A stretch of 64,000 nucleotides of DNA from Candidatus Dormiibacterota bacterium (GCA_963709585.1 CAVPXI010000013.1:96001-160000), one strand, 5' to 3'; shown: positions 15,049 to 59,260, counted from the stretch's first letter. Program-made: numbers and translations. Notes: generated by a model not told the origin, from the letters alone.

Positions 15049-15357
15049 CCGCCGAGAGTCGCGCGACTTAGAGTGGTTTTGCAGGAAAGAACATCAATCA
15101 GGGAATGCGTACTAGTCCCTGCAAAGTGACTGATCCCCGCAAGTTGGAATCGGCTGCATTTGAGTGGAAATGGCTTCACTGCAGTGCAATGGGATGCGAA
15201 TCGGGGAGACAGGACTTCGAACCTGCGACCCCTGGTCCCCCAGACTAGTCCTCATTTCCCGATGCGGGCTGAGTTCGATTTAGAGTGGTTTTGTGGGGAA
15301 TTGGTTGGAATGACGACTAGAGCGCGCGTTATGGATTTCGTTGGAATCGCGTGGACA
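15049..15357 (-). repeat. P-family att-like repeat P1: arm B + tRNA-Pro(GGG) 3' half (15201-15248) + right arm
   Basis: Family core reverse-complements to CTGGT-CTGGGGG-ACCAG-GGGTC-GCAGG-TTCGAGT-CCTGT-CTCCCCG-A; this copy has one extra T and CTAGT in the anticodon stem. Confidence 0.93.
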
Positions 15358-15393
15358 TGATGCGGGTACTCAGCGCGCAGCGGACCACCTTTC

Positions 15394-15792
15394 TCAGCCC
15401 CTCATCAGCACTTCAGAGTCGGCAACGGAGGTGACGTCAACGCCGCCATGCACGCCGAGCGCGAGGAGGTCGGCGTCGCCGGTGACAAGAGCATCGGCCG
15501 ATCCGGTTATGGCTATCGCAAGGATCTGATCGTCATCGGGATCCCGACAGACGCGCGGAACCTCAATCGGCGTCACCACATCGGCCATGGCCTCGAGCTC
15601 CGCTCGCACCGCGACAGCCCGATCGCTCGCCCAGCCACAGGTCTCGACGAGCACGGCCTCCAGCTCACGGAGGATCGCGGGACCGATGATCAGGGTGTGA
15701 TCACCACGGAGGACGTCGTCGAGGAGACGTCGCGGGCGTCCACCAAAGTGGAGCGCCGACACCAGCACATTGGTGTCGAGAACGACCCGCAC
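15394..15792 (-). CDS. PIN-domain (PIN_3/VapC-like) toxin, copy 1
   Basis: MRVVLDTNVLVSA...CRDPDDDQILAIA...LVTGDADLL. Confidence 0.92.
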   Translation of the reverse strand: MRVVLDTNVLVSALHFGGRPRRLLDDVLRGDHTLIIGPAILRELEAVLVETCGWASDRAVAVRAELEAMADVVTPIEVPRVCRDPDDDQILAIAITGSADALVTGDADLLALGVHGGVDVTSVADSEVLMRG

Positions 15793-16053
15793 TCAGCGTG
15801 TTGGTTTGCGGCGAGAGCGGCTGCGTCGCGATTTCACCGCAGCTACGACGCTATCTTCAGTCAGGGCACCAGCAGCCGCTCGGTCTTCCCCATACGCAAA
15901 GAGCTGATCCCATCGCTTGCGTCGCTCCGCGTACTGGCGGAACGCTTCTCGCAAAAGTTCGCTGCGCGTCCGGCCCTCCTGGTGCGCCAAGCGGTCGACC
16001 TCGACCGCGAGCTCTGGCGGGAGCGAGATGGTCACTGTCCCGGTCGTGCGCAT
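15793..16053 (-). CDS. Ribbon-helix-helix (CopG) antitoxin, copy 1
   Basis: VTISLPPELAVEVDRLAHQEGRTRSELLREAF; directly upstream of the PIN gene. Confidence 0.9.
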   Translation of the reverse strand: MRTTGTVTISLPPELAVEVDRLAHQEGRTRSELLREAFRQYAERRKRWDQLFAYGEDRAAAGALTEDSVVAAVKSRRSRSRRKPTR

Positions 16054-16186
16054 GAACAGGACGATAACACGAAGTCTTACCCGATAGGACCGCCGAACGG
16101 ATCGGGCTCACAGTGAACTCGGGCAACCATAGATGCGCCAATGGTGACATTGGCCTGCCGGAGGTCAATTTGCCGAGGACCGGAAG

Positions 16187-16432
16187 CGATCTTCGGTTTC
16201 TCGGCCCGAAACGAAGAAGAGCGTTCTCGCTCCGATCAGGGCCTCGCGCATAGCGGCGGTGTCCGCATACGAGGGGTGCGGCGACCGCGATCGCCCCCGC
16301 CATGGGCGGCGCCGTCCCAACGCTGCGGACGATCAACCGCTGGGCGACGCCGCGGTCCGCGAGGCGTCGTGCCACCCGTCCGCCAAGGGCACCGGTGGCA
16401 CCGGTGATTGCGAGGTCTGGCAGCGTCAGATT
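16187..16432 (-). pseudogene. N-terminal part of an NmrA-like NAD(P)-binding SDR (inverted relative to the rest of the gene)
   Basis: Minus strand 'LAITGATGALGGRVARRL...' Rossmann motif, continuing after a frameshift to 'LFFVSGRETEDR'. Confidence 0.7.
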
Positions 16433-16479
16433 GACTCCATTCCGAGCGGTGTAAGTATCCCGCCGAACCCCACCGACCG

Positions 16480-16770
16480 CGGTGGCACCACTACTCGGCG
16501 ATCGAGGCGGCCCTCGGCGCCGGCGTGGAGCGGATCGTCTACGTCTCTTTTCTCGGCGCCGCACCGGATGCGACGTTCACGCTAGCGCGGCAGCACTACC
16601 TCACAGAGGAGCGGATCCGAGCTGCGGGAATCCGGTACACCTTCCTGCGATCCAGCCTTTACGCCGACTTCGTACCGTTCATGACCGGAGATGATTTGGT
16701 GATGCGCGGTCCCGCCGGGACGGGTAAAGTCGGCTGGATATGCCGCGATGACATCGCTGACGTGGCAGCT
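16480..16770 (+). pseudogene. Middle part of the same NmrA-like SDR, ending just before repeat P2
   Basis: 'HYSAIEAALGAGVERIVYVSFLGAAPDATFTLARQHYLTEERIR...RDDIADVAA'. Confidence 0.72.
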
Positions 16771-16787
16771 CGGACGAGCTCGATGAA

Positions 16788-17270
16788 AGCTGTAAGCGCT
16801 ATGTAGGCGATTGACTGCCACAATCCGATCCATGAGCAGCGGCATCCGGCCTCAACCGTGGAGATTGATGCCTTTTGCAGGAAAAGTACTTATTCGCGTT
16901 TAGAGCACTACACCACGTGGGCGCGCAAGCGCCCAAACGCACTGCGCAACCTCTCGTTGCGAACTCAAGTCGGGCGATTGTCGGGGAGACAGGACTCGAA
17001 CCTGCGACCCCTGGTCCCCCAGACTAGTCCTCATTTCCCGATGAGCGCTGAGTTCGATTCAGACTGGTTTTGCCGGGAATTGGTTGGAATGACGACTAGC
17101 GCAGTTGCGATGGAATCCATTGGATTCCCGTCAACACGCACCCACGGTGCTGGACATTACTTCCCTCCCTCACCCCTCTGGACTTTGGGCATTCTGACGG
17201 CCGTCGGGCGCGTCGATCATCTGAAGCCCGTGGATCTGCTGACAGGGCGCTTGTGTGCCGGAGATCGCCT
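16788..17270 (-). repeat. P-family repeat P2: arm A + tRNA-Pro 3' half (16981-17027) + extended right arm
   Basis: Arm A starts CTGTAAGCGCTATGTA; core TCGGGGAGACAGGACTCGAACCTGCGACCCCTGGTCCCCCAGAC; right arm TTGGTTGGAATGACGACTAG. Confidence 0.93.
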
Positions 17271-17403
17271 CACTCGGTTTAGCATCCGCCTCAGGGCTGA
17301 CGCTCAGGCTTGGATCTCTCCCTCCATGTGGGATGCTGGCGCGGTGACCGGATGGGCCGCGCTCCACCAGATCATCGGGATGGCCGGAGCGAGCTCGCCT
17401 CTG

Positions 17404-19701
17404 TCAGAGGCTCGAGGAGATCCAGCCTGCGATCTGTGCACGTGAGTTGAAGCCAAGCTTGTTGAGGATGTGACCAACGTGGGTGGCGACCGTCCGTTCG
17501 GAAATGAATAGCCGGGCTGCGATCTGCTTGTTGCTGAGACCTTCCGCGACCAAGGCCGCGACCTCAGCTTCACGCTTCGCGAGGGGTCCGGAGTCCGCGC
17601 CGGAGAACGAAGCGGCCTCGCGCTGCTCGGATTCGCCGAGCGCCAGCCGCACCGCCGCGTGGCGGTCCAGGCGTTGCCCCGCCTCAAGCTCGGCCTCAAA
17701 TTTCGCTGCCCCGAGGGCTCGCATGGCCAATTCCCTGGCCTCGGTCTGGTATGGCGCATGCGGTCCAATAACCTTTGCGCCGGCGCCGGCACCGATGGTC
17801 TGCGCCGCCCCGAGCAGCCGGGCTGCGAGGCGCGGCTGGCCGGAGGTCGCGGCGAGCCAACTCATCGCAGCCAGAACGTAAAACTCGGCGATCCGGTCGT
17901 CGAACTGCCGCGCGACCCGCAACGCCTCGGCGGCACCCGCGTGTGCTTCGTCAAGGTCGCCCTTCGTGATGGCAATCGCACCGACATTGCGGAGCATCGA
18001 TGCCAGGTAAAAGAGGTCGCCAGCGTCGCGACTCAGGAGCATGCCCGCCGATGATGTCGCTGCGGCGGCGTCCATGTCATTTGCGAAGAACGCATGGACA
18101 GCTCGCGCCTGCACGAGCTCGATGGTCGCGGCATAGTCGCCGACAACAGCAGTGATCGCTTCGGCCTCATCCAGAAGGTCGCCGGCACCTGTGGGATTGC
18201 CGATCTGGTTCTCCGCGTTGGCGGCGACCGAGAGTGCCTGCGCCAGTTCCGCCGGCTGCCGGGTTTCCCGAGCCGTTGCGATGGCGCGAGCGAGCCATGG
18301 CCTGGCGGCTGCAGGGTCGGCCTGCACCACACTCAGCCAGCCACGAAGGACGAGAGCGCGCACCTGCGTGCGCGGAGACGCCTCCCCTGATGCAAACAGG
18401 AGATCCAGCCAGCGAATGCTCTCCGTGGTTCCGTGGGTGATCCAGTAGTACCGCAACGAGGCCGCTACATCGAGCCCTCGGCCGGAGTCTCGGTGCGAAA
18501 CGCAGTGCTGGAGTACCGCTCGAATGTTGTCGATTTCGAGCTCCACCCAGGCGAGCCAATCACGGAGCTGGTACCGGCCCTCGGCCTCGGTCGACAGACA
18601 CGTCTTCCAGTAATAGTCGACGCAACGCTCCGATAGTTCGCCGTCCTCATGTTCGTCGCGCAACTTGAGCGTGGCGTACTCGCGCATGGTTTCGTGAAGT
18701 CGATAACAGTCACGGCCCCCGAAGTCTTCCTTCATGAGCAGCGATTTCTCGACCAGTGATGACAGCAAGTCCAACGTGTCGGTTGCGGCCAGCTCGCCGT
18801 CGGTGCACACCGATTCGACGTCGTCGAGCGTGAATCGGGTGGCGAAAACGGAGAGTCGCCGCAAGACGTGCCGTTCACGCGCCGTCAGCAGGTCGTAGCT
18901 CCAGTCGATGGTCATCCGGAGCGTTTGATGTCGCGGCAGCGCGGCGCGGCTCCCTCCGGTGAGGAGGGCGAAGCGATCACGCAGACGCTCGAGGATCTGC
19001 TCCACGCTGAGGACCCGGGTTCTGACCGCCGCGAGCTCAATCGCCAGCGGCAGGCCATCGAGGCGCCGGCACACGGCAACCACAGCTGCCTGGTTCACAT
19101 CGGTGAGGACGAACGTGCCGGACGCCGCGGCTGCCCGCTCGGTGAACAGGACGACGGCTTCGTTCTCTCGCACGTGGGCGAGCGGTTCGGTTCCATCGTC
19201 GCGAGGCAGCTGGAGTGGCGTGACGGGCACCACGTGTTCGCCCGCCACCTGGAGCGGCTCCCGGCTGGTGGCGATCACGCGGATGTTCGGAGCGGAGCGA
19301 AGGGCCTCAGCGATGAGCTGAGCCGCCGCATCGAGAACGTGCTCGCAGTTGTCGAACACCAGCAGCAACGCTTTGTTCCGCCAGAAGGACCTCAGGATCT
19401 GCAGCGGCTCCACGCCGGCTTGGTCACGGAGGTCAACGGCCGCAAGCACGGCGCTGGGCACAAGGGCGGCATCGCGCACCTCGGCGAGTTCGACCAGCCA
19501 GGCGCCGTCGCTGAATCCGCGTGAGAGGTCGTCTGCAGCCCGCAATGCGAGCCGGGTCTTCCCCACTCCTCCTGGCCCGACGAGGCTGACGAGCCGGGCG
19601 GCCGCGAGTTTCTGCCTGATCTCGGCGAGCTCGCGGCGGCGGCCCACGAAGCTCGTGGTCTCGGCGGGCAGATTGCCCGAACGGTGACGTGGTCTCGCCA
19701 T
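17404..19701 (-). CDS. STAND (NB-ARC-like ATPase)-TPR-LuxR HTH transcriptional regulator
   Basis: [31 protein letters not shown]; C-terminal '[30 protein letters not shown]'. Confidence 0.93.
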
Positions 19702-19812
19702 GGTGAGTCCGAACCTACCCCTCAATCACGAGCGCTGATGTCCTTCGACTACGCATCGAATCCGTAATCCTGACGATTCGGCCGGTCCGGCCCCTGGCTC
19801 AGCCTGACACCC

Positions 19813-20031
19813 ATGACACACGAGCTGCCGAATCATCGGGTCGCGGCGACATTCGTCAGCCGACCTCCCATGCGTCAGATTGCCCGAGCGTCGGGTGTGA
19901 CCGACGTGGTGGTCGATGGCTGCCAGCTGCGCTGCGTGGTGCACGGCAGCTTTCAGCCCCTGCTCGAGGCGCTGCGCGGCTACGAGGTCATCAGCCTCAC
20001 TTCCATTCCGACCTCGGACGGAGGTGATTGA
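19813..20031 (+). CDS. Small protein resembling the C-terminal domain of ABC-2 ATPases
   Basis: 'GVTDVVVDGCQLRCVVHGSFQPLLEAL' resembles the tail of 2632..3546. Confidence 0.45.
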   Translation: MTHELPNHRVAATFVSRPPMRQIARASGVTDVVVDGCQLRCVVHGSFQPLLEALRGYEVISLTSIPTSDGGD

Positions 20032-20128
20032 TGGCCACAAGGCGAATCACGTCTCTCGATCCCGACCAGCCTGACGCATCCACATCGCACCTCAATCGGT
20101 GCTCATTCATCAAGACAAGGAGAACGAC

Positions 20129-20815
20129 ATGACCGTCACACCGAACACCCTCTTCCGAGCGACCGGCGTTGCCACGGCGGTGGCAGGAATGATCTTCATC
20201 GGCGTACAGATCGGGAGTCCGCACCTGGACGGCGCCACCATCACAACGACCAACGCGGTCGTCCGCGACAGCCTCAAGGTCCTCATGGCTGCCCTGGCGC
20301 TCGCCGGGATCAGCGGTCTGTACCTGTTCCAGGTGAGGAAGATCGGCGTGCTCGGCCTGGTCGGGTACCTCACCTTCGCCACCGGCTACCTGACGATGCT
20401 CGGGATTGAATTCGTCGGCGCTTTCGTCCTCCCGTCGATCGCGCACAGTTCCCCCGCCTACGTCAGCAATGCCATCGCCGAAGCCACCAACGGCACCGTC
20501 ACCGGCAGCATCGGGCTGATCAAGGTCGCGATCCTGGTCAACGGGATCACCTACGTCGTCGGCGGTGTCATCTTCGGCATCGCACTCTTCCGCGCCAATG
20601 TCCTCGCTCGATGGGCCGCCGTGCTCCTCGCCTGCGGCAGCGTCGCAACCGTCGCAACCGGCGTCATGCCGCAGTACGAAAGGCTGTTCGCTTTTCCCAC
20701 CGGCATCGCCCTGATCGGCCTCGGGTACTCCCTGTGGCAGGCGCAGCGCTCGCCAGCCTCTCGGGCCATCACCAGCTCGGTGAGCTCGCAACTCGAGGCG
20801 GCCGGAGCCAAGTGA
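20129..20815 (+). CDS. Hypothetical membrane protein
   Basis: AAGGAG RBS; about 6 TM segments. Confidence 0.8.
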   Translation: MTVTPNTLFRATGVATAVAGMIFIGVQIGSPHLDGATITTTNAVVRDSLKVLMAALALAGISGLYLFQVRKIGVLGLVGYLTFATGYLTMLGIEFVGAFVLPSIAHSSPAYVSNAIAEATNGTVTGSIGLIKVAILVNGITYVVGGVIFGIALFRANVLARWAAVLLACGSVATVATGVMPQYERLFAFPTGIALIGLGYSLWQAQRSPASRAITSSVSSQLEAAGAK

Positions 20816-20925
20816 CCGTCCGCGTGGCAGCACACCCCACCCCGATCGACCGCGTCGATCGGGTGGGTGCCAGTCGTCAATTCAAAAACCAAACGATCAC
20901 GACCCGATCACAAGGAAACATCCAA

Positions 20926-21654
20926 ATGACCACATCGCGAAAAACCGCGCTCGTTGTCGGAGTGCTGTTCATCCTCACCTTCATCACCTCGATCGCAGGA
21001 GAGCTCTCCTACGGCTCCGTCCTCAGCGATCCCCACTACATCACCAGTGCCGGCACCGACACCGGCGTGTTGGTGGGTGCGTTCTTCGAGATGTTCCTCA
21101 TCATCACTAATATCGGTTGCGCAGTGGTGTTGTTCCCGCTGCTCAAGCGTCAGAACGAGGCACTCGCCCTCGGCTACGTCACCGCTCGCCTCGTTGAGTG
21201 CACGTTCATCCTGGTCGGCATCCTGAGCGTCCTTGCGGTCGTCACACTGCGACAGCACGCCGGGAGCGCAGATGCGGGCTCACTCATCGTTGTCGGCAAG
21301 TCGCTGATCGCCATCAAGGCGTGGACACTGCTGCTCGGGCCCGGATTCGTCGACGGAATCGGGACTGGACTGATCCTGGGCTGGCTGATGTACCGGTCAG
21401 GGCTCGTGTCGCGCCGCATGGCGCTCTTCGGCGTCGTCGGTGGTCCACTGCTGGCCGCTTCAGGGATCGTTGTGCTGTTGGGCGTGATCCCACAACAATC
21501 GGCATTGCAGGGCATCGCGACCATCCCGGAGGTGATCTGGGAGGGGTTCTTGGGCTTGTGGCTCACCTTCAAGGGATTCAACGCGGTTGCTGTTGGTGCC
21601 GGCGAAACCACAGACGTCCGTCAAGCCGTAGTGATGGCTGCTGTTGATGCGTAG
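20926..21654 (+). CDS. DUF4386-like membrane protein
   Basis: 'TALVVGVLFILTFITSI', 'LALGYVTARLVE', 'LMYRSGLV', 'WEGFLGLWLTFKGF'. Confidence 0.8.
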   Translation: MTTSRKTALVVGVLFILTFITSIAGELSYGSVLSDPHYITSAGTDTGVLVGAFFEMFLIITNIGCAVVLFPLLKRQNEALALGYVTARLVECTFILVGILSVLAVVTLRQHAGSADAGSLIVVGKSLIAIKAWTLLLGPGFVDGIGTGLILGWLMYRSGLVSRRMALFGVVGGPLLAASGIVVLLGVIPQQSALQGIATIPEVIWEGFLGLWLTFKGFNAVAVGAGETTDVRQAVVMAAVDA

Positions 21655-21683
21655 TTCCTCGGAAAGGGCCAGACTGCGACGCC

Positions 21684-22958
21684 ATGGCCGAGGTCACCTT
21701 CGAACCGGCGGTGGCTTCGTTGCGCCGGGAGGTGCCCACGGCACGAGTGGGAGTCGGGTTCATCTCCCTCTTCACGTTGGCGTACATGAGCGCCAATCTC
21801 GTCTTCCAGGCGCCGATACTGGTAACCCTTCCCTTGAAGGTCAGCTCGCTTGTCGGAATCAAACAAGCTCCGGGGAGCCTGGCGCTTGTCGCAAGCATCG
21901 GCGCTTTCGTGGCCATCTTCGGGAATCCCTTCTTCGGGCGGATGAGTGACCGCACGACGTCACGACTGGGGATGCGAAGGCCATGGATGGTCATCGGCGT
22001 GGTCGGCGGCACCGCCGGCGTCGCCATCGTCTCCTTCGCACCCAGCATCCCGGTTGTTCTGCTCGGCTGGTGCATCGCGCAGCTGTTCTTCAACGCGATG
22101 CTGGCTTCGCTCGCGGCGGTGCTTCCCGATCAGATCCCGGTCGCGCAACGCGGCACGGTCTCCGGTGTGCTGGGCATCTGCCTGCCGATTGCGGCGGTGA
22201 GCGGCACGTACATCGTGAAGCTCTTCAGCGGACAACACATCGCCACATTCCTTGTCCCGTGTGCGACGGGGGGCTTCTTCATCCTGCTGTTCGCGGTCGT
22301 GTTGAATGACCGGCACCTTGCGAAGGCGGATAGGCCGACTTGGTCCATACGGGAATTCGCAAGTACCTTCTATGTGAAACCGCGGACCAGCCCTGACTTT
22401 GCCTGGGCTTTCGCCAGCCGCTTCATGTTCCTGATGGCCTACGCCCTGCTCGCGACGTACGAGGCCTACTATCTGCTGCAGAAGATCGGCACCGCCGTGG
22501 CCGACGTGCCGCAACAGATCTTTCTCGGCACGCTCGTGCAGGGGGCCGTCATCGTCGCCGCGTCGCTCATCGGTGGGCATCTCTCCGACCGGACGCGCCG
22601 GCGAAAGATCTTCGTGTTCACCGCTGCGATCGTCTATGGCCTGGCAATGTTCGCGCTGGCGATAGCCAGCAGCTTCAACGGGTTCCTCGTCGGCATGGCC
22701 ATCAGCGGACTCGGTTTCGGCGTGTTTGCGGCTGTCGATCTCGCGCTCGTCGTTGACGTGCTCCCGAATCCGGGTCACAACGGCAAGGATCTCGGCGTGT
22801 TCAACATCGCGGGCGCGCTCCCGTTCTCGCTGGCGCCGGCGTTGGCGCCGACGATCCTGGCGATCGGCGGCGGCAGCTATGGTGTGCTATACGCCGTTGC
22901 GGGCGTCTGCGCCATCCTCGCTGCTGTCGCGATCATGGGCGTGAAGGGTGTCCGCTGA
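21684..22958 (+). CDS. MFS transporter
   Basis: Motif A 'GRMSDRTTSRLGMRRPW' and 'GHLSDRTRRRK'; about 12 TM. Confidence 0.92.
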   Translation: MAEVTFEPAVASLRREVPTARVGVGFISLFTLAYMSANLVFQAPILVTLPLKVSSLVGIKQAPGSLALVASIGAFVAIFGNPFFGRMSDRTTSRLGMRRPWMVIGVVGGTAGVAIVSFAPSIPVVLLGWCIAQLFFNAMLASLAAVLPDQIPVAQRGTVSGVLGICLPIAAVSGTYIVKLFSGQHIATFLVPCATGGFFILLFAVVLNDRHLAKADRPTWSIREFASTFYVKPRTSPDFAWAFASRFMFLMAYALLATYEAYYLLQKIGTAVADVPQQIFLGTLVQGAVIVAASLIGGHLSDRTRRRKIFVFTAAIVYGLAMFALAIASSFNGFLVGMAISGLGFGVFAAVDLALVVDVLPNPGHNGKDLGVFNIAGALPFSLAPALAPTILAIGGGSYGVLYAVAGVCAILAAVAIMGVKGVR

Positions 22959-23489
22959 GCAGGGCCCGCCGTAGGTCGGCTCGCCCGCAAGGACTGAGTG
23001 CCATCGGAGCGACCAGCTTCGTGGCTTAGGGCGATGAGCAGCGGGTTCAGGCTCTATAGGTCCATATCGGTCCCGCTGCGAGGCCTGGATACAACCCAAC
23101 GGTCGGCCCGCTCGCTCGTCGCTCATCTCTATTGTCGTTGAGCACCCCGCTTACCGACGTAAGCATCGGCGCATAGTCTTGCCAGGAGTGGTCTGGTGAC
23201 AGCATGCCCGTGTGGCCGAGTACTACAGCGCGCCGATACCATGTCTGTCTCAATACAGAGCCGCGCCCGCACTGTCTCACCGCTGACGCTGGGCCTATGA
23301 GGGACTACAAAGGGCACCGTGGCTAAAAGGGAGGAATTCCCTAGTCGGTACCTTGAAGAAAACCGGGCAAGCCCGAACCACCTGAATGGGGCTCTGAACG
23401 CGAGTAAATCAGTGCGACAGCGTGGCCTCTGCTCTGCAAGCAGAGGCCACTGCGAACCGGGTGGTCAACACGGTGGACCGATCAGGCGG

Positions 23490-49610: not shown

Positions 49611-49634
49611 TGCAGCGCGTAGAGTGGATGAGCG

Positions 49635-49820: not shown

Positions 49821-50308
49821 AATCGTCAATCAAGCTGACCCGCTCCGTGCTTTGGCGCTACGGACGCCGAATCGTGGACCGAGTTTCGCGCGCTGCCTCA
49901 GCGCCATCGCGGTCGCGGCCGAGCTTGACTCGATGGCCACGAAAGAGCGTGCAGTCGCTGCTGACGAGCGGCGGATGGAGGCGCGTCGCGTCGCGCTGCT
50001 CCGGACCTCTGAGCGTTGAGCGTACCTCGCGCAGGGACGATGCCGGTCCTTCACGAATAAGGGCCGCCCTACCTGAATGCAGCCAGGTTGGTCGACCGCT
50101 TCATCTGAGACTTCGACGCGCTCGATGCGCTCTGTGAGACGTGAGACGTGCGTAGACGACCGGCCAAGAAGGCACCTGCTGCGGAGCGGGTCCGTTTGAA
50201 TGTGGGGGCCGGGCCAAAGCCCTGCGGACGTACGCGCAAGCGCTCGTCACTCCAGGGTTAAGAGGGATGTTTTTGCCTTTTGCCCGGCCCTCGGCCACCA
50301 GCATAGGC

Positions 50309-50521
50309 TTATTGGTGAGACTTAATTTGGGGAGCCGATTCGCTCGGATCATCTCGATGGGTGACCCTGTCCGGATAGACCCGAGCCCCGCACCCGGGAC
50401 ACTTCGCGATGGGCCGCATGATGACTACCTCGGGCCGCTTCAGATCACCCTTCCGCGTCCGAGCGACATGAAAGGTCAGCGGGACGAGCCGGTCGGCTCC
50501 GCACTCAGGGCATGGCCCCAT
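50309..50521 (-). CDS. Small Zn-ribbon protein (CPxC...RPxAKCxxCG family)
   Basis: CPECGADRLVPLTF...RPIAKCPGCG. Confidence 0.72.
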   Translation of the reverse strand: MGPCPECGADRLVPLTFHVARTRKGDLKRPEVVIMRPIAKCPGCGARVYPDRVTHRDDPSESAPQIKSHQ

Positions 50522-50959
50522 GGCCAGTTCATCGTCTCACTCTTACAGACGCGACAGTGGCAAATAGCTGCCCTGCGACGGATGCCCTGCGCCCGGTGGT
50601 GAAGACAGTGGATCAGCTCGCTTTCGAGCTCGATCGGAACGACGTCTCGAACGCCTGACGCTTCGCCGACATCCGACCCTGCGCGCACGACCCGCCGCCG
50701 CCTCGGCCGGTGGCCACGGTCGGGACGCGGCCCCCTTCCGCGACTACTCGCAGAATGCCAGGGAGCAGAACCTCGAGCCCGAGGTCTCGGCGCGATCTCG
50801 GCGGTAGCGGGGCCCCTTCGACTACGTCAAGGTCGATCACTGGACGATGAAGGCCAACTCGCCCCCGGCAAGACAGACGAGGAGTGGGGGTCGGGCGAGG
50901 ACCCTGATAGCGCGAGAGGGAATGTACGGCCAGTCGCCAGGGAGAAGTGACTCTAATGG

Positions 50960-51132
50960 GTGGCGAGCAGCTCGGCTGAGGAGCAAGCTGCTCCCGAGCC
51001 GCCGGCGGGTGACCACTCTTCGACTCAGAGCGCTGAGCTCCAGGCCTAGACCGTGGCCCCGACGGTTGGCGAGGAGACAAGACGGCCGGTGGGATGTCGT
51101 GCCCCGAGCACTGATCCATTAGGGCGCCGCGA
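50960..51132 (+). ncRNA. IS110 bridge RNA (target-binding and donor-binding loops)
   Basis: GTGGGATGTC (51089-51098) equals the right end; CCATTAG (51116-51122) is the reverse complement of left end CTAATGG; GCCTAGA (51044-51050) is the reverse complement of target TCTAGGC; ACTCT (51015-51019) equals the left target flank. Confidence 0.78.
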
Positions 51133-51176
51133 TGCTCCTCCGGCTCGTTGTCGCGTTCACACAGGAGGAGCGCCAC

Positions 51177-52391
51177 ATGGTCTACCTCGGCATCGATTGG
51201 GCGGAGGCGCACCACGACGTGTGTCTCCTTGACGAGGCAGGAGCCCGTCTCGACAAGGCGCGCGTCCCCGATGGGATCGAAGGCCTGGCACGCATCCATG
51301 AGCTGGTCGGGGCGCACACCTCGAAACCCGAGACCGTGGTGGTTGGCATCGAAACCGACCGCGGTCTGCTGGTGCAAGGGTTGGTGGCCACCGGGTATCA
51401 GGTGTATGCCCTGAATCCGTTCGCGGTGAGTCGCTACCGCGATCGCCATACCGTGTCGCGGGCGAAGTCGGATCCGGGCGACGCCAAGGTGTTGGCCGAG
51501 TTGGTCCGCACCGATCGCCAGAACCATCGCCCGATGGCGGGCGACAGCGAGCTCGCGGAGAGTCTGAAAGTGCTCGCCCGCACCCATCAGACGTTGGTGT
51601 GGGCGCGCGTCCGGCATGCCAATCAGCTGCGCGGCGCGCTGCGGGAGTTCTATCCCGCTGCACTGGACGCGCTGGGCACGGAGTTGGCCGGTCGGGACGC
51701 ACTGGCGTTGCTCAGCCGAGCACCCACGCCCGAGCAAGGACGGCGGCTGACTCTCAACCAGCTCCGGGTGGTGCTGGCGCGTAGCGGGCGCCGTCGCGGG
51801 ATCGCCCCCCGCGCTGCGGCCTTGCAACGCGCACTGCGTGCGCCGCAACTGGCGCCGCCGCCGCTGCTCGCCAGGGCGTATGGCAGCTCGGTGCTGGCCA
51901 TGGTGCGCGTGATCAGCGAGTTCAATGCGCAGATCGCCACCCTCGAGGCCGAGCTTGCCGAGGCTTTTGAAGATCACCCGGACGCCGAGATCCTGCGCAG
52001 TCTGCCCGGACTTGGTGTGATCCTCGGCGCCCGGGTCTTGGCGGAGTTCGGTGACGACCGGACCCGCTATGAGAATGCCAGAGCGCGACGCTGCTATGCC
52101 GGCAGCGCTCCGATCACTCGTGCCTCAGGCACTCGGTCGGTGGTCCTGGCGCGTGTGACGCGCAACCGCCGTCTCGCCGATGCGCTCTACCTGTGGGCCT
52201 TCTGCACCCTGACGCATTCAGCGGGCGCACGTGCCTATTACGCGGCTCATCGTGCCCGCGGCCACACCCACCATCAGGCGCTGCGTGCCCTCGCCAACCG
52301 TCTCGTCGGCATCCTCCACGGCTGTCTCGAACATCGCTGCTGCTACTCCGAACGCGTGGCCTGGCCACCCATCCGTCAGGCTGCTGCTTGA
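51177..52391 (+). CDS. IS110 family transposase/recombinase
   Basis: 'YLGIDWA', 'GIET', 'KSDPGDA' (DEDD), 'SLPGLG', 'AGSAPITRASG'; AGGAGG RBS. Confidence 0.96.
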   Translation: MVYLGIDWAEAHHDVCLLDEAGARLDKARVPDGIEGLARIHELVGAHTSKPETVVVGIETDRGLLVQGLVATGYQVYALNPFAVSRYRDRHTVSRAKSDPGDAKVLAELVRTDRQNHRPMAGDSELAESLKVLARTHQTLVWARVRHANQLRGALREFYPAALDALGTELAGRDALALLSRAPTPEQGRRLTLNQLRVVLARSGRRRGIAPRAAALQRALRAPQLAPPPLLARAYGSSVLAMVRVISEFNAQIATLEAELAEAFEDHPDAEILRSLPGLGVILGARVLAEFGDDRTRYENARARRCYAGSAPITRASGTRSVVLARVTRNRRLADALYLWAFCTLTHSAGARAYYAAHRARGHTHHQALRALANRLVGILHGCLEHRCCYSERVAWPPIRQAAA

Positions 52392-52760
52392 CGACTTATC
52401 CCCGTGGGATGTCTAGGCTCGCCCGGCCCGCGCGCTCAGCATAGGTCAGTCCGAGGCGGTCAATTGACGCTCGATGCGCTAGCGGGCCGACGTGAGCGGC
52501 CGCGTCTCTTCAGGCTCGCCGTCACAGTGGCAATTCGTAGCCCTGAATGGCTAGGGCTCACCTGCTCGACATGCGGCAGCAAGTTGTTGCAGGCGTTTAG
52601 GACGGTCGACGGCGACGCCACCGTGGAAGCTGATTGGCGGAACGACTCAACCCGGAGCTCAATCTCGACCATGACCACGATCGTCGTAAAGCGGGATACA
52701 CACACCCGTCACAGAGCGCGACGGTCGCGTCCGAAGGCGCGTCGCAGGAAGCACCTATCA

Positions 52761-53109
52761 AAACTGTAAGCGCTATGTATGCGCTGGACTGACACAATCT
52801 CTTGCGATGACCAGCGGCATCCGCCCTCAACCGTGGGGATGGATGCCTTTTGCAGGAACAGCCATTATCCCTGGTTAGAGCACTACGCCACGTGGGCGCG
52901 CAGGCGCCCAAACACACTGTGCAACCTCTTGTTGCGAACGCAAGTCGGGCGTCCGTCGGGGAGACGGACTCGAACCTGCGACCCCTGATCCCCCAGACCA
53001 GCGCTTTGCTCCCGATGCGGGCTGAGTTCGACTTAGAGTGCTTTCGTCGGGGAGTGGTTGGAATGACGACGAGACCGTGGCTTTCGGAATCCATTTGAAT
53101 CGCGTAGAC
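52761..53109 (-). repeat. P-family repeat P7: arm A + tRNA-Pro 3' half (52956-53001) + right arm
   Basis: Arm A start AAACTGTAAGCGCTATGTATGCG; core with a 1-bp deletion and one substitution. Confidence 0.92.
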
Positions 53110-53383
53110 ATCAACAGGCGCGAGAAAGCAGTCAGCTTCCAACGCCGATCCACCCCGAATCTACTCGGCAACGTTCCCTGCGACCAGGGCGATCCCTCCG
53201 CGCTGGAAAAGGCAACAAAGCCCGCCGCGACAAACTCTAACGCGCTCGTTGCGCGTTGTCTCGACCTCGGGAGGTGGCAGGCACTGCACCTAACGCGGTC
53301 CTAGCATCGACGATGCGCGTTGGCTGCGCCGACCCAACTCGCCCACATGGCGAGGTGGGCGGCGGCGGAATGCGAGGAATGGA

Positions 53384-53563
53384 TCACTTGGGTTTGGCGC
53401 TGGAGCGACGCTTCCGTCGGTCCCGGATGACGTAGATCGGAGTACCGATGATCGCGGCGAGCATCAGGATCGGGACGATGATCCACGGCCCGATGTGAAA
53501 GCTCTCCCCGCTATTTGCGGCTGTCGCGATCAGTTTGACGGCGATGATCATTTGCTGATGCAT
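53384..53563 (-). CDS. Small single-TM protein (59 aa)
   Basis: Translated by hand: MHQQMIIAVK...GPWIIVPILMLAAIIGTPIYVIRDRRKRRSSAKPK; follows the ABC permease; purine-rich RBS. Confidence 0.5.
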   Translation of the reverse strand: MHQQMIIAVKLIATAANSGESFHIGPWIIVPILMLAAIIGTPIYVIRDRRKRRSSAKPK

Positions 53564-53626
53564 GTTCCTAGCTCCTTGGGGGTGATTCTGATGGCTGGTT
53601 CGGGGCGCATTGACAGAGCGCCCAGG

Positions 53627-54415
53627 TCACGTGATGTCGCGCAAGACCGTGGTACGCGCGGCAATGAGCGATATGACTGCGGCGATACCGGCGATGAGTG
53701 CCGCGGAAGCGATGACAGGCAGCGATGTGCCTCCTGCCAGCCCGTGGGCGGGACCGAAGGCGGCGTTGCCGAGTGTGGCCCCGGCCATGGTGGTGGCCGC
53801 GGTGTACGGGAGGTAGGGGCGAACCGACGTGTACAAGCCGCCGATGAGCGACTCGATCACGATGGCCCAGACGAAGATGCCGATGACGATGGCGAGTTGG
53901 GATCGGACGAGCGAGCCAAGGGCCACTCCGAGGACAGCGAGTAGGGCTGCGCCGAGCATGGCGCCGGCGACGTGGCCGACGAGTGTTCCCGTGCTCAGTG
54001 CGACGTGGTCGCCTTGCGCAGCCACGAAGATGAGACCGACGGTGGTGGCGATGATGCCGGCGAGAAGGCCAAAGAGAGAGCCGACGATTGCAGCGGCGAT
54101 GGCTTTGGCTACCAGAACCCGAGGTCGTTTGGGGGTGGCGAGGTACGTGAGGGTGGCGCTGGAGTGGCGGAACTCGCCATTGGCCACGATCGCACCCAGC
54201 ACAGCAGCCAGGAGCATGGCGAACCCGGTCACGGTGGTCACGCTTCGAAGACCTTCCGCAGTGGAGATCGGGGGTGCACCGCTGCCGGCGCTGCCAGCTT
54301 GGCCGCCTTCGAGTATTGCGAAGAACCCACTCAACGCAGCCGCCGCGGCGATCAGCCCGTAGGTGAGGCGCATGGTGCGCAGCTTGAGTAGTTCGGTGCG
54401 AACCAGCAGCGTCAT
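53627..54415 (-). CDS. ABC-2 type permease
   Basis: 'RTELLKLRT', 'GEFRH...TYLATPKR'; about 6 TM. Confidence 0.9.
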   Translation of the reverse strand: MTLLVRTELLKLRTMRLTYGLIAAAAALSGFFAILEGGQAGSAGSGAPPISTAEGLRSVTTVTGFAMLLAAVLGAIVANGEFRHSSATLTYLATPKRPRVLVAKAIAAAIVGSLFGLLAGIIATTVGLIFVAAQGDHVALSTGTLVGHVAGAMLGAALLAVLGVALGSLVRSQLAIVIGIFVWAIVIESLIGGLYTSVRPYLPYTAATTMAGATLGNAAFGPAHGLAGGTSLPVIASAALIAGIAAVISLIAARTTVLRDIT

Positions 54416-55320
54416 CGGGCGACCTCGCTTCGCTCGGCGTCCGCGGTAAGTCGGAGAAAAATGTCTTCGAGGTCTGCGGCGTCGGTGTTGGTTTCGAAGA
54501 GTGGGATTCCCTGTCCGGCGGCAAGGGTGCCGACCTGTTCCCCGCTTGCGCCGCTGACCTTAAGCCGGTCTGGCGCGATTATCTCGGCCGTGAAGCCCTT
54601 CGCCGAGAGCGCGGCAGCCAGGTCTTGGGCTCGCGGGGTGCGTACCCGGACGACGTTACTGGTTGTGGCGATAAGGTCAGCGAGCGTGGCCTGAATGACG
54701 AGCCGGCCCCGATCGAGGATCACCACGCTGTCGACGGTCTGGGCGACCTCGGCGAGGAGGTGGCTGGATACAAGTATCGTGCGTCCCTCCGTCGCGAGTT
54801 GACGAAGGAATTGGCGGAGCCAGTGCACGCCTTCAGGGTCGAGCCCGTTGGCCGGCTCATCGAGGACGAGGATCTGCGGGTCGCAGAGCAATGCGGTGGC
54901 CAGGCCGAGTTGTTGGCGCATGCCGAGGGAGAACTGCCCAGCCCGGCGGTGAGCGGCGTGGGTGAGGCCGACGATGTCGAGCACCTCGTCGACCCGAGCG
55001 GGCGGGGCCCCGCCCACCAGGGCCTCGATTCGGAGATGGTTGCGGGCCGTGCGCCCCGGATAGGCGTTCGAGGATTCGAGGACGGCGCCGACGACACGCA
55101 TGGGTGCAACCAAGTCACGGTACGGGCGGCCATTGATAGTGGCTGTTCCCTCGCTCGGCTCGATGAGGCCGAGGATCATCCGCAACGTGGTGGTCTTGCC
55201 GGCGCCATTGGGCCCGAGAAACCCTACGATGCTGCCGCGCTGCACCGTGAAGCTGACGTGGTCAACGGCGGTCAGGCTGGCGAAGCGCTTGGTCAGCCCT
55301 TCGACCTCGATCACCGCCAC
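54412..55320 (-). CDS. ABC transporter ATP-binding protein (BcrA-like)
   Basis: GPNGAGKTT, FSLGMRQ, VLDEPANGLDP. Confidence 0.93.
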   Translation of the reverse strand: MAVIEVEGLTKRFASLTAVDHVSFTVQRGSIVGFLGPNGAGKTTTLRMILGLIEPSEGTATINGRPYRDLVAPMRVVGAVLESSNAYPGRTARNHLRIEALVGGAPPARVDEVLDIVGLTHAAHRRAGQFSLGMRQQLGLATALLCDPQILVLDEPANGLDPEGVHWLRQFLRQLATEGRTILVSSHLLAEVAQTVDSVVILDRGRLVIQATLADLIATTSNVVRVRTPRAQDLAAALSAKGFTAEIIAPDRLKVSGASGEQVGTLAAGQGIPLFETNTDAADLEDIFLRLTADAERSEVAR

Positions 55321-55421
55321 TATCGCGACCGGACTGGTGCAATAACGATCGTGCGTTGGTTCATGCAGACGATGCTGACGGGCATTGCGCCGCGTGTCGT
55401 CGGGCCGGGAGCGGCTCGTCG

Positions 55422-55441
55422 GCTACGTCAGTGGGCGTAGC
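55422..55441. promoter_or_regulatory. Palindromic operator GCTACG-N8-CGTAGC
   Basis: Lies between the ABC operon and a divergent NarL-type two-component system; repeated at 24323. Confidence 0.55.
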
Positions 55442-55531
55442 GACGAGGGCACAACTGCGCCCGGAACCGCAGCTCGCAAGCCGCTGCTAAGGCGATGCGC
55501 TGGGGGAAGCGGGTAGCTACGCTGGGCCTCG

Positions 55532-56726
55532 ATGGATCACGTGCATCGGGAAACCAGCGTCACCGAGGGAGGGACGGAACGACGACGGGGGTGGTTCGCG
55601 GACCTGAGTTGGCGTCGGTATCTGGCTCTTCCCGCCGTGCTATTAGTGGTGCAACTAGCCGGAGCAATCGCCACCACAGCCAGTCAGCAGGGCCAGCAGA
55701 CTCCCCTCGGCGTCGCGGACTGGATCTTGCTGGTTGTAGGTCCGCTGGCGCTGACGTTCTGCCACCGCCACCCGGTTGCTGTGCTCTGGGTGACACTCGC
55801 GGCCACGCTCGCCCCCTCAGGGTCATGGTCTGCGAACCTAAGCCTCATCGTCGCCTTTTTCATCGCGGCCACCGGCGGGCTCCGGCGAGCCGCCTGGCTG
55901 GTGATCGTGGCCGGCTATGTCTGCAGTGTTTGGCTGGCCCCGCTCGTCTTCGGCCATTCGATTGCGACACTGCAGTTCGCGCTTCTCCTGTTCGGGTGGC
56001 TGACCGTGCTGGTGATCGCGGCCGAAGTGGTCAGGATGCGCCGTGAGCGCAGTATCGAGACCGACGCGGCCCGCCGAACTCGCCTCAGAGCGGCGAGCAA
56101 GCGAGGAGCGACTGGTGATGGCCCGGGATCTCCACGACGTGATCGGCCACAACATCTCGCTCATCAACGTGCAAGCTGGAGTGGGCCTCGACCTGATGGA
56201 CACTCACCCCGAACAGGCCCGCGTCGCCCTGGCGGCGATTAAGGCCTCCTCGAAAGACGCCCTCGACGAACTGCGCACCATGCTCGTCGCACTCCGCCAG
56301 ACGGGTGAGGAAGCACCGCGCTCACCGACCCCAGGCCTCGCCCGACTCCCCGAGCTGATCAAGGTGACACGCGCCGCCGGTCTTTCAGTGGTCACCGAAG
56401 TTGCCGGGGACCCGATGCCGCTGCCCACCCCGGTCGACCTGGCGGCCTACCGAATCATCCAAGAATCGCTCACGAATGTCGCCCGCCATGCAGGACCAGC
56501 GACCGCAACCGTACGCCTCACGTATGAGCGCGACACGCTGGTCATCGAGATTGCGGACGACGGCGATACCCAACGAGTCAACGCAGTGCTGCCATTCGGT
56601 GCGGGCAGCGGGATCCCCGGCATGCGCGAGCGCGCGACGGCCCTCGGAGGTCGCCTCGACGCCGAGCCGCGTCCGGGTGGAGGGTTCGCCGTGACCGCCC
56701 GCCTACCGCTCGGAGTGCCGGGGTGA
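55532..56726 (+). CDS. HisKA_3 (NarX/DesK-like) sensor kinase; apparent frameshift at 56076-56081
   Basis: TM region followed by 'EERLVMARDLHDVIGH', 'QESLTNVARHA', 'GIPGMRERA'. Confidence 0.88.
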
Positions 56727-57388
56727 TCCGCGTGCTCCTCGCCGACGACCAGGCGCTCGTCCGCGCCGGCTTCAAAGCCCTGCTCGATGCGCGGGACGAC
56801 ATCGAGGTCGTCGGCGAAGCCGCCAACGGCACTGAGGCGGTGTCGATGTGCAAGACGCTGACGCCCGACGTGGTGCTCATGGACATCCGCATGCCTGAAC
56901 TCGATGGCCTCGAAGCCACCCGCCAGATTGCCGACGACGCCCGCCTCTCAAGCGTGCGCATCATCATCCTCACCACCTTTGAACTCGACGAATATCTCTT
57001 CGACGCCCTACGTCACGGGGCGAGTGGATTCTTGGTCAAAGACACCGAGCCGGCTGATCTCGTAACTGCCGTGCGGGTTGTAGCCGCAGGGGACTCCCTG
57101 ATCTCGCCCAACATGACTCGCCGCCTCGTCGCCGAGTACGCCGCCCGAGCCAAGGAGCCGCGGCCCCCCGATGAATTGGCGGCGCTCACACAGCGAGAAC
57201 GTGAAGTCATGTGCCTCGTAGCGGGAGCGTTGACCAATGACGAGATTGCCGAGCGCCTCTACATCAGCCCAGCCACCGCGCGCACCCATGTCAGCCGGGC
57301 TATGAACAAGCTCGGCGCCCGGGACCGCGCACAACTCGTGGTGCTCGCCTACGAGACCGGGCTCGTTCGCCCAGGATGGCTCGCCTGA
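56723..57388 (+). CDS. NarL/LuxR-family response regulator
   Basis: VLLADDQ, LMDIRMP, LTQREREV...TARTHVSR. Confidence 0.95.
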   Translation: MIRVLLADDQALVRAGFKALLDARDDIEVVGEAANGTEAVSMCKTLTPDVVLMDIRMPELDGLEATRQIADDARLSSVRIIILTTFELDEYLFDALRHGASGFLVKDTEPADLVTAVRVVAAGDSLISPNMTRRLVAEYAARAKEPRPPDELAALTQREREVMCLVAGALTNDEIAERLYISPATARTHVSRAMNKLGARDRAQLVVLAYETGLVRPGWLA

Positions 57389-57707
57389 GCGGGGCGCGTC
57401 TGAGAGCCGTGGACCACCAAGTGCGACTGCTACTAGTCAATCCGGTGAGCGCCCCCCTCCAGCGGGGTTACCCGCCGGGACCATCGAGCGAGTTCGCAGT
57501 CGTACATGGCGGCGAACACCTTGACGATGTCCGCAATTCGGAAGCGTTCACTCGGGTCGCTGCTGACGTGTTTCACTCGCCTTCTTCCGATCCGCCAGCC
57601 CCCCGTGGCTCGAAGCACTGGCCCGGTTCGATTCCGCTCACGCGCTCTTCGCACACGACCTCTCGGGCCTGGAGTTCGCAAACAACCACCCTCCCGACAA
57701 AACGGTA

Positions 57708-58190
57708 GTGCCCACACTCGGACGGTTCACCGCCGGGATTTCACAATTCGCCAATAGGCGCGGCATTTACCTTGGGCGGCGGTCGACGAAGATCCATGTG
57801 GCTCTCTACCGGCGGACCGGCGGCAGGATCGGCGGCCATCTCCCCGGCTGGAATCAGGCCCGGATCCTCCTCCTTGACCACACGGGCGCTAAGACCGGCA
57901 CGAGGCGGACGTCTCCGCTGATGTACCACGAGGATGACGTTACCGTCGCCGTCGTGGCTTCGAAGGGCGGCCAGCCCACGCACCCGGCGTGGTTCCACAA
58001 CCTGAAAGCGAATCCGGACACGACGATCCAGATCGGCTCGGTGGTTCGGACTGTCCGCGCTCGCGTCGCGACCGACGAAGAGCGCGACCGCCTCTGGCCG
58101 AAGTTCGTAGCCTTCTACCCCGGCTACGACTTCTTCCAAAGCCATGCGAAGAGTCGGAAGATCCCGATCGTGATCCTCGACCCTCGTTAG
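57708..58190 (+). CDS. Nitroreductase-like deazaflavin (F420)-dependent oxidoreductase (DUF385)
   Basis: 'GAKTGTRRTSPL', 'VASKGGQPTHPAWFHNLKANP', 'RKIPIVIL'. Confidence 0.9.
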   Translation: MPTLGRFTAGISQFANRRGIYLGRRSTKIHVALYRRTGGRIGGHLPGWNQARILLLDHTGAKTGTRRTSPLMYHEDDVTVAVVASKGGQPTHPAWFHNLKANPDTTIQIGSVVRTVRARVATDEERDRLWPKFVAFYPGYDFFQSHAKSRKIPIVILDPR

Positions 58191-58830
58191 CAGAAAGCCT
58201 CGGCCTTCCCCAGGCGCGCCGTCGACTTCCCTGAGAGTCGCCCTCTCAAGGAACAATCGCTCAGATCCTCGGGCCCGGGCGCCACCTCTCGTCCTCGCTT
58301 CATCGCTCCCCACTCACCTCCGCTTTCGTGCAACTGCTTGCGAATCTCTTACGGGCGTTCCGATGTCGAGCGTCGGAAGCACGTTGGAGTCTGACCGCGC
58401 AATCCTGTGCCCGAGTGCAGCGCCACCACCGGGGGACGGACCGCGACTGCTGGTCTCGACATGAACCCCGACACGACCGCGTAGAACGACTGCGCGGTGT
58501 TCTCATCCAGCACCGAGCGATAGATGAACCCCCCGGAAAACTGGAGACTCTGGGGTGTCCAAAGTTCAGCCACCGACAGCCGAGGGTCGAGCGGCGGAGC
58601 GCCGCCAGGGTGTCCGCCCGCACGGCTGCCCCACAGTCCGAGCCGTGGACCTCTCCCCGATCGATCGTGCTGAAGCAGCTGTCCATCTTCGAGAACTGTT
58701 CGAGCATCTCGCGGATGCCGCCGATTTCGTGCTGCCACGCGACCCAAGTCGATCTCATCGCCGGGAGCGTTGGCGATTGCTCCCCGCGCCGTCACGCCGG
58801 CCAGGTGGAGCGCATAGACGGGCGCGGCCA

Positions 58831-59260
58831 AAACTGTAAGCGCTATGTATGCGCTGGACTGCCACAATCTCTAGGCATGAGCAGCGGCATCCGGCCTCGA
58901 CTGTGGGGAATGATGCCTTTTGCAGGAAAAGTCATCATTCCTGGTTAGAGCACTGCACAACGTGGGCGCGCAGGCGCCCAAACACACCGCGCAACCTCTC
59001 GTTGCGAACTCAAGTCGGGCGTCCGTCGGGGAGACAGGACTCGAACCTGCGACCCCTGGTCCCCCAGATTAGTCGTCATTTCCCGATGAGTGCTGAGTTC
59101 GATTTAGACTGGTTTTGTGGGAATTGGTTGGAATGACGACTAGAGCACGTGTGATGGATTCTTTTGGAATCGCGTGCACACGCTCGGCGAATTGTGCCGC
59201 CTCCCTTCGCGGCTCTCCCCAACCGCTCTCCCGACTCTATCGACTTTGGGCATTCTGGTC
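58831..59260 (-). repeat. P-family repeat P8: arm A + tRNA-Pro 3' half (59026-59072) + right arm
   Basis: Aligns with P2, P4 and P7. Confidence 0.93.

Follow-up and report, generated by a model that had tools for sequence, protein, structure and literature searches.

Integrase-less genomic islands in a probable insertion stack behind tRNA-Pro(GGG) of a Candidatus Dormiibacterota bacterium

Introduction

Genomic islands that accumulate in tandem behind a single small-RNA gene have been described in Dehalococcoides, where multiple islands lie downstream of ssrA together with more than 12 direct repeats of its 3′ end, all within 100 kb; extra conserved bases adjoin the repeat and the cargo is strain-specific (McMurdie et al. 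2011, PMC3146451). In the portions of that report on which we draw, the repeat is a 20-bp piece of the transfer-messenger RNA (tmRNA), the crossover is placed in the T-loop and 16 islands have a six-gene integration module with a CcrB-like serine recombinase, while some islands lack the module and were termed possible cis-mobilizable elements (PMC3146451). Here we analyze a 64,000-nt stretch of a Candidatus Dormiibacterota bacterium metagenome-assembled genome (MAG), C13:96001-160000 (hereafter the window), which holds eight co-oriented partial copies of tRNA-Pro(GGG). We consider it probable that this window represents the central part of a series of small islands, which piled up as one element after another inserted site-specifically at that tRNA gene, and that these islands are akin to cis-mobilizable elements (CIMEs) which are, or recently were, moved by the integrase of a rare helper. 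As far as the published description extends, the two systems have in common the tandem islands behind one small-RNA gene, the direct repeats of its 3′ end and the occurrence of islands without an integration module. They differ in that the target here is tRNA-Pro(GGG), the repeated block is ~52 nt, the candidate enzyme is a Xer-like tyrosine recombinase, the arms beside the block are far longer and none of the ~20 islands in this genome has an integrase.

With respect to CIMEs, the available part of the literature describes elements that have kept both attL and attR, have lost the genes for integration and transfer, stack at the 3′ end of a target gene and can be moved by the integrase of a neighboring integrative and conjugative element (ICE); they are presented as decay products (PMC5704250). 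The islands described here share with CIMEs and with ICESt1 the att sites on both sides, the lack of integration and transfer genes and the stacking at one target 3′ end, although the published cases, as there described, are tandems and not stacks of ~20. Tandem accretion of ICESt1 in Streptococcus thermophilus was reportedly the subject of work by Pavlovic in 2004 and Bellanger in 2011. Since both arms are present and integrase and transfer genes are not, our islands fit the definition of a CIME. Nevertheless, the lack of integrase remnants, together with two arm types that have sharp common boundaries, suggests a self-standing class of non-autonomous elements, unlike CIMEs that are products of decay.

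A third point of comparison is offered by the tycheposons of Prochlorococcus, tRNA-targeting tyrosine-recombinase elements that build flexible islands; neighbors are parted only by a partial tRNA, newcomers push older elements inward, and the sections consulted report scattered partial tRNAs, fragmented integrases and an average of 1-2 elements per genome (Hackl et al., 10.1101/2020.12.28.424599). To the extent of that account, a tRNA-targeting tyrosine recombinase and partial-tRNA junctions between stacked elements are common to both systems, whereas the present arrays have no fragmented integrases, another host phylum and another integrase lineage. The pSAM2-type elements of actinomycetes have tRNA-Pro as target, an identity segment from the anticodon loop to the 3′ end and an attP of a few hundred bp; they are single and autonomous, with int, xis, rep and tra, and we know of no integrase-less stacks among them. 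A full-text literature search on Dormibacter integrases returned nothing on such arrays, judging by titles and abstracts. Tandem accretion and CIMEs being already published, what we describe is a known process at unusual scale, set apart from the known cases by its ~20 junctions, the arrays free of integrase genes and remnants, the long, sharp-edged arms of two types, the host phylum and a second repeat family nested within.

Results

The repeat search detects one family in the window, in eight co-oriented copies (P1 to P8), where a previous reading of the window from its sequence alone (the sequence-only reading) had located them. The junctions, in window coordinates, are:

15049..15367, minus strand: junction P1; type-B P′ arm 15049-15200, tRNA block 15201-~15253 (T-loop longer by a 1-nt insertion), P arm to ~15367; extension to 15516 in common with P5
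16788..17258, minus strand: junction P2; type-A P′ arm ~16788-16980, block 16981-~17032, P arm to ~17146; extension to 17258 in common with P4
26576..26741, minus strand: junction P3; tRNA block and P arm only, without a conserved P′ arm; a sigma-factor/DUF6596 open reading frame (ORF, 25429-26562) stops 14 nt ahead of the block
33243..33713, minus strand: junction P4; type-A P′ arm, block from 33435, P arm and extension; with its flanks 95% identical to a junction in congener G032
38659..39126, minus strand: junction P5; type-B P′ arm, block from 38812, P arm entering the 3′ end of vapC (PIN)
49370..49584, minus strand: junction P6; degraded block, with 3 changes located 3′ of its anticodon stem, and P arm; no P′ arm in common with other copies
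52762..53120, minus strand: junction P7; type-A P′ arm, block from 52956 (1 substitution, 1 deletion), P arm
58832..59257, minus strand: junction P8; type-A P′ arm, block from 59026, P arm and extension

The core-to-core spacings are 1779, 9595, 6859, 5377, 10557, 3586 and 6071 bp, in agreement with the earlier values to within 1 bp. A 33-nt core pattern (at most 3 mismatches) has eight matches, all on the + strand, where 0 are expected (100 shuffles), and the 16-mer TGGTTGGAATGACGAC is exact in 8 of 8 copies, 88-89 nt off the core anchor (0.01 expected by shuffles). The reverse complement of the core is tRNA-Pro(GGG) from about position 23/24 to 75. ARAGORN finds no complete tRNA within the window, which means that the 5′ half is absent from the copies; alignment and ARAGORN concur with the previous identification of the core as the 3′ part of this tRNA, its 5′ half never being present. 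BLAST and alignment likewise recover the two classes of left arm that had been recognized, A at P2, P4, P7 and P8 and B at P1 and P5; P3 and P6 have no left arm in common with the other copies. Of the right arm, said to be shared by all copies over 110-250 bp, the sharing holds, but its universal length is only ~50-110 bp by BLAST and ~110 bp by alignment; similarity reaching 130-450 bp is limited to subsets of copies.

The array reaches far past the window on both sides. The assembly (designated G000) is a MAG of 3.52 Mb in 24 contigs, 88.8% complete, and the core with its right arm has 23 matches in it, 23 of 23 on the + strand and on two contigs only: 17 on C13, between 11768 and 211561, and six on C14, from 13466 to 71680, including a 25-nt remnant. 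In total, C13 bears 16 junctions over ~200 kb, six of them left of the window and two right of it, at core-to-core distances of 1.8-41 kb; the stack on C14 spans 54-58 kb. On both contigs the series is closed by an intact gene:

C13:211509-211583, minus strand: intact tRNA-Pro(GGG) (ARAGORN), at the high-coordinate end of the repeats and co-oriented with them
C14:71628-71703, minus strand: intact tRNA-Pro(GGG) (ARAGORN), at the high-coordinate end of the repeats and co-oriented with them

The sequence-only reading had predicted an intact minus-strand tRNA-Pro beyond position 64000, and the C13 gene is just that, 51.5 kb past the window end; the integrase that was suspected beside it is missing, none adjoining the tRNA on C13. 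The G+C content of C13 (0.646) is below that of the other large contigs (0.66-0.68), and the contig ends 564 bp beyond its tRNA, within a der fragment. Two copies of der (EngA) are present in this one bin, the fragment at C13:211636-212147 and a full gene at C14:71756-73162, each followed by tRNA-Pro(GGG) and an array; the DNA identity of the two is only 87%. Congener G008 also has two der-tRNA copies, which are 99.2% identical. The arrays on C13 and C14 may belong to a single long locus, to two separate loci or to two related populations that were binned together. An IS110-family insertion sequence (IS), present in three genomic copies (in the window, at C14:312653-314121 and at C7:92758-94228), is 99.8-99.9% identical between C13, C14 and C7, which argues that these contigs belong to one population.

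Read in the orientation of the tRNA, a junction consists of a conserved P arm, the tRNA block (~23-75) and a P′ arm, an attP-like arrangement. All but one of the 20 partial copies have an exact GGAATGACGAC in the P arm, located +88 to +92 relative to the anchor; the genome as a whole has 21 occurrences, 19 of them inside these junctions. The motif TGGAAT is phased at about +89, +115 and +125, and by hand count ~47 of its 59 plus-strand copies on C13 fall in junctions. Thirteen of the 20 partial copies have the sequence of the gene all the way from the anticodon loop to the 3′ end, whereas positions 23-31 mismatch it in 19 of 20, the usual changes being G-to-A on the 5′ side of the anticodon stem and T-to-G four bases upstream. 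An imperfect 5′ side next to a gene-identical 3′ side is as expected from strand exchange in or next to the anticodon loop, and differences limited to the 5′ side of this loop are, judged from the sequence, the putative signature of a tyrosine integrase crossover there.

The P′ arms are of more than one kind. Of 22 sites, 10-11 have type A (~150-250 bp), among them the one flanking the intact C13 tRNA, and five have type B (~100-160 bp), among them the one flanking the intact C14 tRNA; six of the 22 have another P′ arm or none in common. Types A and B both have sharp common outer boundaries, with unrelated cargo beyond. The type-B arm aligns with the P′ arms of integrase-bearing elements up to about the 8th codon of int, of which it retains the start region only. 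No conserved ORF is seen in the type-A arm; an int-like start motif occurs at 3 of 22 sites and is followed there by stop codons after ~13 codons. Alignment of the sites reveals no clear link between arm subtypes, either across a junction or within a cassette. An inverted P-arm 11-mer in the P′ arms was dropped as a candidate feature, being exact in only 2 of 22. Over the junctions Rfam has no family at gathering scores, a promoter and terminator scan of P1-P2 gives nothing exceeding shuffles, and the single-strand fold of the repeat is weakly better than shuffles (z = -2.09).

The repeat is also found in other genomes of the genus. Core plus arm matches 35 of 36 sampled same-genus genomes, and a copy that includes the arm occurs in 28 of 36, judged by best E-values; the per-genome copy numbers of this survey are lower bounds. 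In the neighboring family the match is confined to the tRNA itself in 23 of 24 genomes, a count that includes three unpublished genomes (G039, G048 and G056) and is the only one to draw on them. Moreover, some relatives have the integrase that our arrays lack. In G019, a single contig, a tyrosine integrase comes immediately after one junction, and in G016 it immediately follows an intact tRNA which itself comes after der. Eight of 41 congeners encode this cognate integrase, a protein of 332-345 aa, with identities of 88-100%. Among nine integrase loci of the named collection, whose hosts are recorded as Candidatus Dormibacterota or Dormibacteraeota MAGs, seven have an intact tRNA-Pro(GGG) ending 85-113 nt upstream, one has a partial core upstream and one has neither. 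An integrase beside the tRNA or a junction is found, then, at 8 of 9 congener loci and nowhere in this genome. Its sequence classes the congener enzyme as a predicted Xer-like tyrosine recombinase; the integron-integrase model TIGR02249 gives it 41.6 bits against a cut-off of 265. The structure model, with a mean predicted local distance difference test score (pLDDT) of 74, starts with ~40 low-confidence residues, followed by a helical core-binding domain and a catalytic domain.

Comparisons between arrays reveal where they differ. One contig of G008 reads der, tRNA, int, ~90.6 kb, P arm, core and type-A arm, and a second reads der, tRNA and type-A arm, the element being absent; the two contigs share flanks of 2119 bp (99.2% identity) and 269 bp (98.9%), and the second homology begins near tRNA position 27. 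The first 13 kb of the 90.6-kb element encode a TraI-type helicase, ParA, RadC, ArdC and SSB, which gives it the look of a conjugative or mobilizable element; its integrase-bearing counterpart in G016 has instead a D12 methyltransferase, a phosphoesterase and an ORC/Cdc6-like protein. In our assembly, the C14 island abutting the tRNA matches the second island of C13 (97% identity over 5.3 kb), with homology that stops 27 nt into the tRNA, and C13 has an additional integrase-less island of 12.7 kb between its tRNA and the shared one. Such breaks at the anticodon stem/loop, between C13 and C14 of G000 and in G008, are what the sequence-only reading anticipated when it placed the breakpoints of variation at the cores. 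Island order varies as well: the tRNA-proximal island of C13 is the most distal one in G019 (94% identity). In G019, a single junction bears the integrase, and it is separated from the tRNA by five integrase-less islands of 1.9-10.6 kb; provided that newcomers insert at the tRNA, these five postdate the arrival of the integrase.

Public reads from four runs, in the form of short contigs (X1, X4, X6 and X8), were compared with window positions 13001-33000. Among the 15 joints listed none is core to core, and the short contigs speak neither for nor against excision. A loose contig end at 26626 enters the 5′ half of the tRNA and is uninformative, the core being common to the gene. X1 and X4, which come from different studies, have one contig each in which 26693 (the end of the P3 right arm) is joined back to 14918, just left of the P1 left arm; this joint, with a side of 34 nt, is outside the cores and unexplained.

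The genes between the junctions were called with our own heuristic, based on G+C at third codon positions (GC3), and the Pfam scan covered 68 ORFs of the window and 131 from the rest of C13, with eight ORFs spanning locus borders omitted. A six-frame search of the genome for tyrosine recombinases (PF00589) has 11 matches, 0 on C13 and 0 on C14 before 321 kb; several of the 11 adjoin other tRNA genes. Six-frame searches also reveal no integrase remnants on C13 or on C14 before 321 kb. For serine recombinases (PF00239) the six-frame search of the genome has a single match, at C4:351897, off the arrays; with a tRNA as the target, this sets aside membership in the Dehalococcoides ssrA island family. 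Among the scanned C13 ORFs there are no integration or transfer genes, the IS110 transposase being the only mobile-element gene. The earlier claim that no interval encodes an integrase or other mobility gene holds for integrases and has to be amended for P6-P7, which carries that transposase (51132-52391). The contents of the intervals are:

15368..58831, no single strand: seven integrase-less cargo intervals, P1 to P8 (Pfam)
39004..39663, minus strand: vapBC-type toxin-antitoxin pair, PIN 39004-39402 and RHH 39403-39663; abuts the P5 P arm
50948..52417, plus strand: IS110-family insertion sequence, transposase 51132-52391; inside the P6-P7 cassette

The cargo includes regulators (LuxR/STAND, TetR, extracytoplasmic function (ECF) sigma factor with DUF6596, two-component systems), ATP-binding cassette (ABC) and major facilitator superfamily (MFS) transporters, F420-dependent and flavin enzymes, hydrolases and GH15. 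By the GC3-based ORF calls, the right-hand neighbor is a minus-strand gene at ~14 of 16 C13 junctions and the left-hand neighbor a plus-strand gene at ~11-12 of 16. As flanking genes mostly converge on the junctions, the islands look self-contained rather than like promoterless cassettes.

Several further observations concern this cargo. With three near-identical copies in the genome the IS110 element is probably active, and the window's only Rfam match, the small RNA Ms_AS-4 (52001-82, minus strand), is antisense within its transposase gene. A PIN-like stretch at 15394-15792, akin to the P5 vapC, abuts P1, and an arm-plus-PIN unit is also present at C14:17964 and in G019; the vapBC/PIN unit may stabilize islands. 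A monooxygenase/TetR module occurs twice in the array (window 28230-30430 and C13:12459-14659, 98% identical), as does a SnoaL/sigma/DUF6596 module, in opposite orientation and at 93% identity (window 24388-26563 and 59402-61577); both copies of the latter turn the same gene end towards a junction. Finally, window positions 34683-35000 (~320 bp) are found 2-3 times at 89-95% identity in several congeners, for example three times on G010:C13, and could represent one terminus of a different repeat or IS.

A second repeat family is present in addition to the first:

6713..14934, minus strand: second co-oriented repeat family, 4 copies; nested in the cassette left of P1

It has nine co-oriented copies, all on the C13 + strand, in two clusters within two large tRNA-Pro islands: 6713-6821, 11069-11177, 13604-13746 and 14844-14934 in the window and further ones at C13:165682-185052. 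The copy at 14880-14934 (minus strand) is tRNA-Gly(CCC) from the anticodon stem to the 3′ end, the intact gene being at C4:124614-124685; the other copies have a short acceptor-like hairpin and a conserved tail. Within the genus, 11 of 42 genomes have this family, and no integrase is near the tRNA-Gly(CCC)-derived copies.

Discussion

The mechanism that we propose starts from an incoming circular element with an attP, which would comprise a P arm of ~110 bp (with its phased TGGAAT and the near-invariant GGAATGACGAC), a tRNA copy from the anticodon stem to the 3′ end and a P′ arm of 100-250 bp. A Xer-like tyrosine integrase would swap strands in or next to the anticodon loop, so that the element's tRNA copy completes the gene and the old 3′ half is displaced downstream; repetition would leave junctions of P arm, tRNA block and P′ arm between the islands. 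The integrase would be supplied in trans by rare integrase-bearing relatives, for example the 90.6-kb congener element with its conjugation-type genes. Alternatively, the islands may travel in cis, as a composite with an integrase-bearing element.

Both the anatomy and the distribution of the repeats support their interpretation, already put forward by the sequence-only reading, as att-type junctions of site-specific insertion at tRNA-Pro(GGG). The same reading postulated a shared recombinase acting in trans: the cognate integrase of the congeners speaks for it, its absence from this assembly against it, and supply in trans, like a role of the arms and present-day movement of the islands, is something we infer. 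Because the cognate integrase was not found here, mobility in this genome is unproven.

Several observations weigh against a stack of recently mobile islands. The best match to the cognate integrase in this assembly is only 32% identical and lies beside tRNA-Gly(GCC), although the true gene could reside in the missing 11% of the genome. The predicted integrase model has no visible arm-binding domain to account for the conserved arms. Seven of the 20 tRNA blocks are changed 3′ of the anticodon stem, and there are signs of decay in the cargo, where genes are split or truncated (a GH15 glycosidase at 39935-41284 and 41148-41879; a sigma/DUF6596 gene at 59403-60645) and an IS has inserted. Some of the homology between arrays ends away from any core, implying that other rearrangements also act. 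Lastly, with der-tRNA ends only 87% identical, the C13 and C14 arrays of this MAG might not share a cell.

Some of these points would be explained equally if the stack were a fossil, that is, if the junctions were the scars of integrase-bearing elements that have lost their mobility genes, with nothing moving now and the arms alike through recency or homogenization. The missing integrase, the seven mutated tRNA blocks, the damaged cargo with its IS and the loss of the P′ arm at P3 and P6 are all in keeping with such a history. Decay of this sort should, on the other hand, leave integrase remnants, and the six-frame searches of C13 and of C14 before 321 kb are without them; nor is it expected of independent decay that 10-11 type-A and five type-B arms share sharp outer boundaries. 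Moreover, an integrase-less island has the same insertion signature as the integrase-bearing element, and the five integrase-less islands of G019 are nearer the tRNA than the integrase-bearing one. On balance we regard a fossil stack as unlikely, while conceding it real weight.

Homologous recombination between the junction repeats (200-450 bp) could also drive most gain, loss and reshuffling of islands, the att function mattering for the first insertions only. The repeats are suited to this, being 80-95% identical over hundreds of bases and all co-oriented, and both the differing island order among arrays and the homology breaks off the cores would follow. Nevertheless, the two well-resolved polymorphisms break near tRNA position 27 and not along the repeat, and the polymorphism at positions 23-31 stays linked to the P arm. 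As the main engine of variation, such recombination seems improbable to us; it is, however, compatible with site-specific stacking of islands and does not exclude it.

The sequence-only reading called the array integron-like, and a resemblance exists: in both, one site-specific recombinase system stacks many short co-oriented units parted by one repeated site, and the candidate integrase is in the Xer-like group, which also includes the integron integrases. Toxin-antitoxin pairs such as the vapBC pair here are also found among the cassettes of large chromosomal integrons. The comparison breaks down on three defining features of a true platform, in which a fixed integrase and primary site capture promoterless cassettes under a platform promoter. 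First, neither tRNA in this genome has an adjoining integrase, that of G019 is five junctions from its tRNA, and the TIGR02249 score cited above is far below the cut-off, so that there is no IntI. Second, the sites are tRNA fragments, double-stranded and of the attP type, and neither attI nor attC. Third, there is no platform promoter logic, the units being multi-gene, with genes on both strands, regulators of their own and flanking genes that converge on the junctions. An integron-like platform is already contradicted by these features, and we give it very little credence. A dispersed tRNA-derived repeat, be it a miniature inverted-repeat transposable element (MITE) or similar to a short interspersed nuclear element (SINE), would be short, non-coding and multicopy like ours, but the genome-wide check for such scatter instead yields 23 copies in one orientation and two clusters, each ending at its parent tRNA, without terminal inverted repeats or target duplications and with 19 of 21 genomic GGAATGACGAC sites inside the junctions, so that the idea can be practically dismissed.

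If stacking by site-specific insertion is accepted, a more ambitious proposal suggests itself. The genus could keep a true cassette system anchored at tRNA-Pro(GGG): a shared pool of integrase-less, multi-gene cassettes with an attP module of ~350 bp and two sharp-edged P′ types, moved between species by the Xer-like integrase of rare conjugative helpers and with tRNA-Gly(CCC) sub-cassettes inside. We put this forward tentatively, since our doubts about it outweigh our confidence; if true, it would amount to an integron counterpart that is independent, double-stranded and based on a tRNA, with 6-8% of the genome under its control.

Flexible islands beside tRNA genes are common, and how they build up is usually hard to read owing to the decay of the scars. 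Here ~20 junctions are readable, with both arms and a clear crossover signature kept, in a soil phylum without a cultured model. Relatives provide candidates both for the integrase and for a conjugative helper, and with a defined recombinase/site pair it becomes testable whether a rare helper keeps a whole class of integrase-less islands mobile. Even if the islands are immobile, the locus is a clean record of serial insertion at one site.

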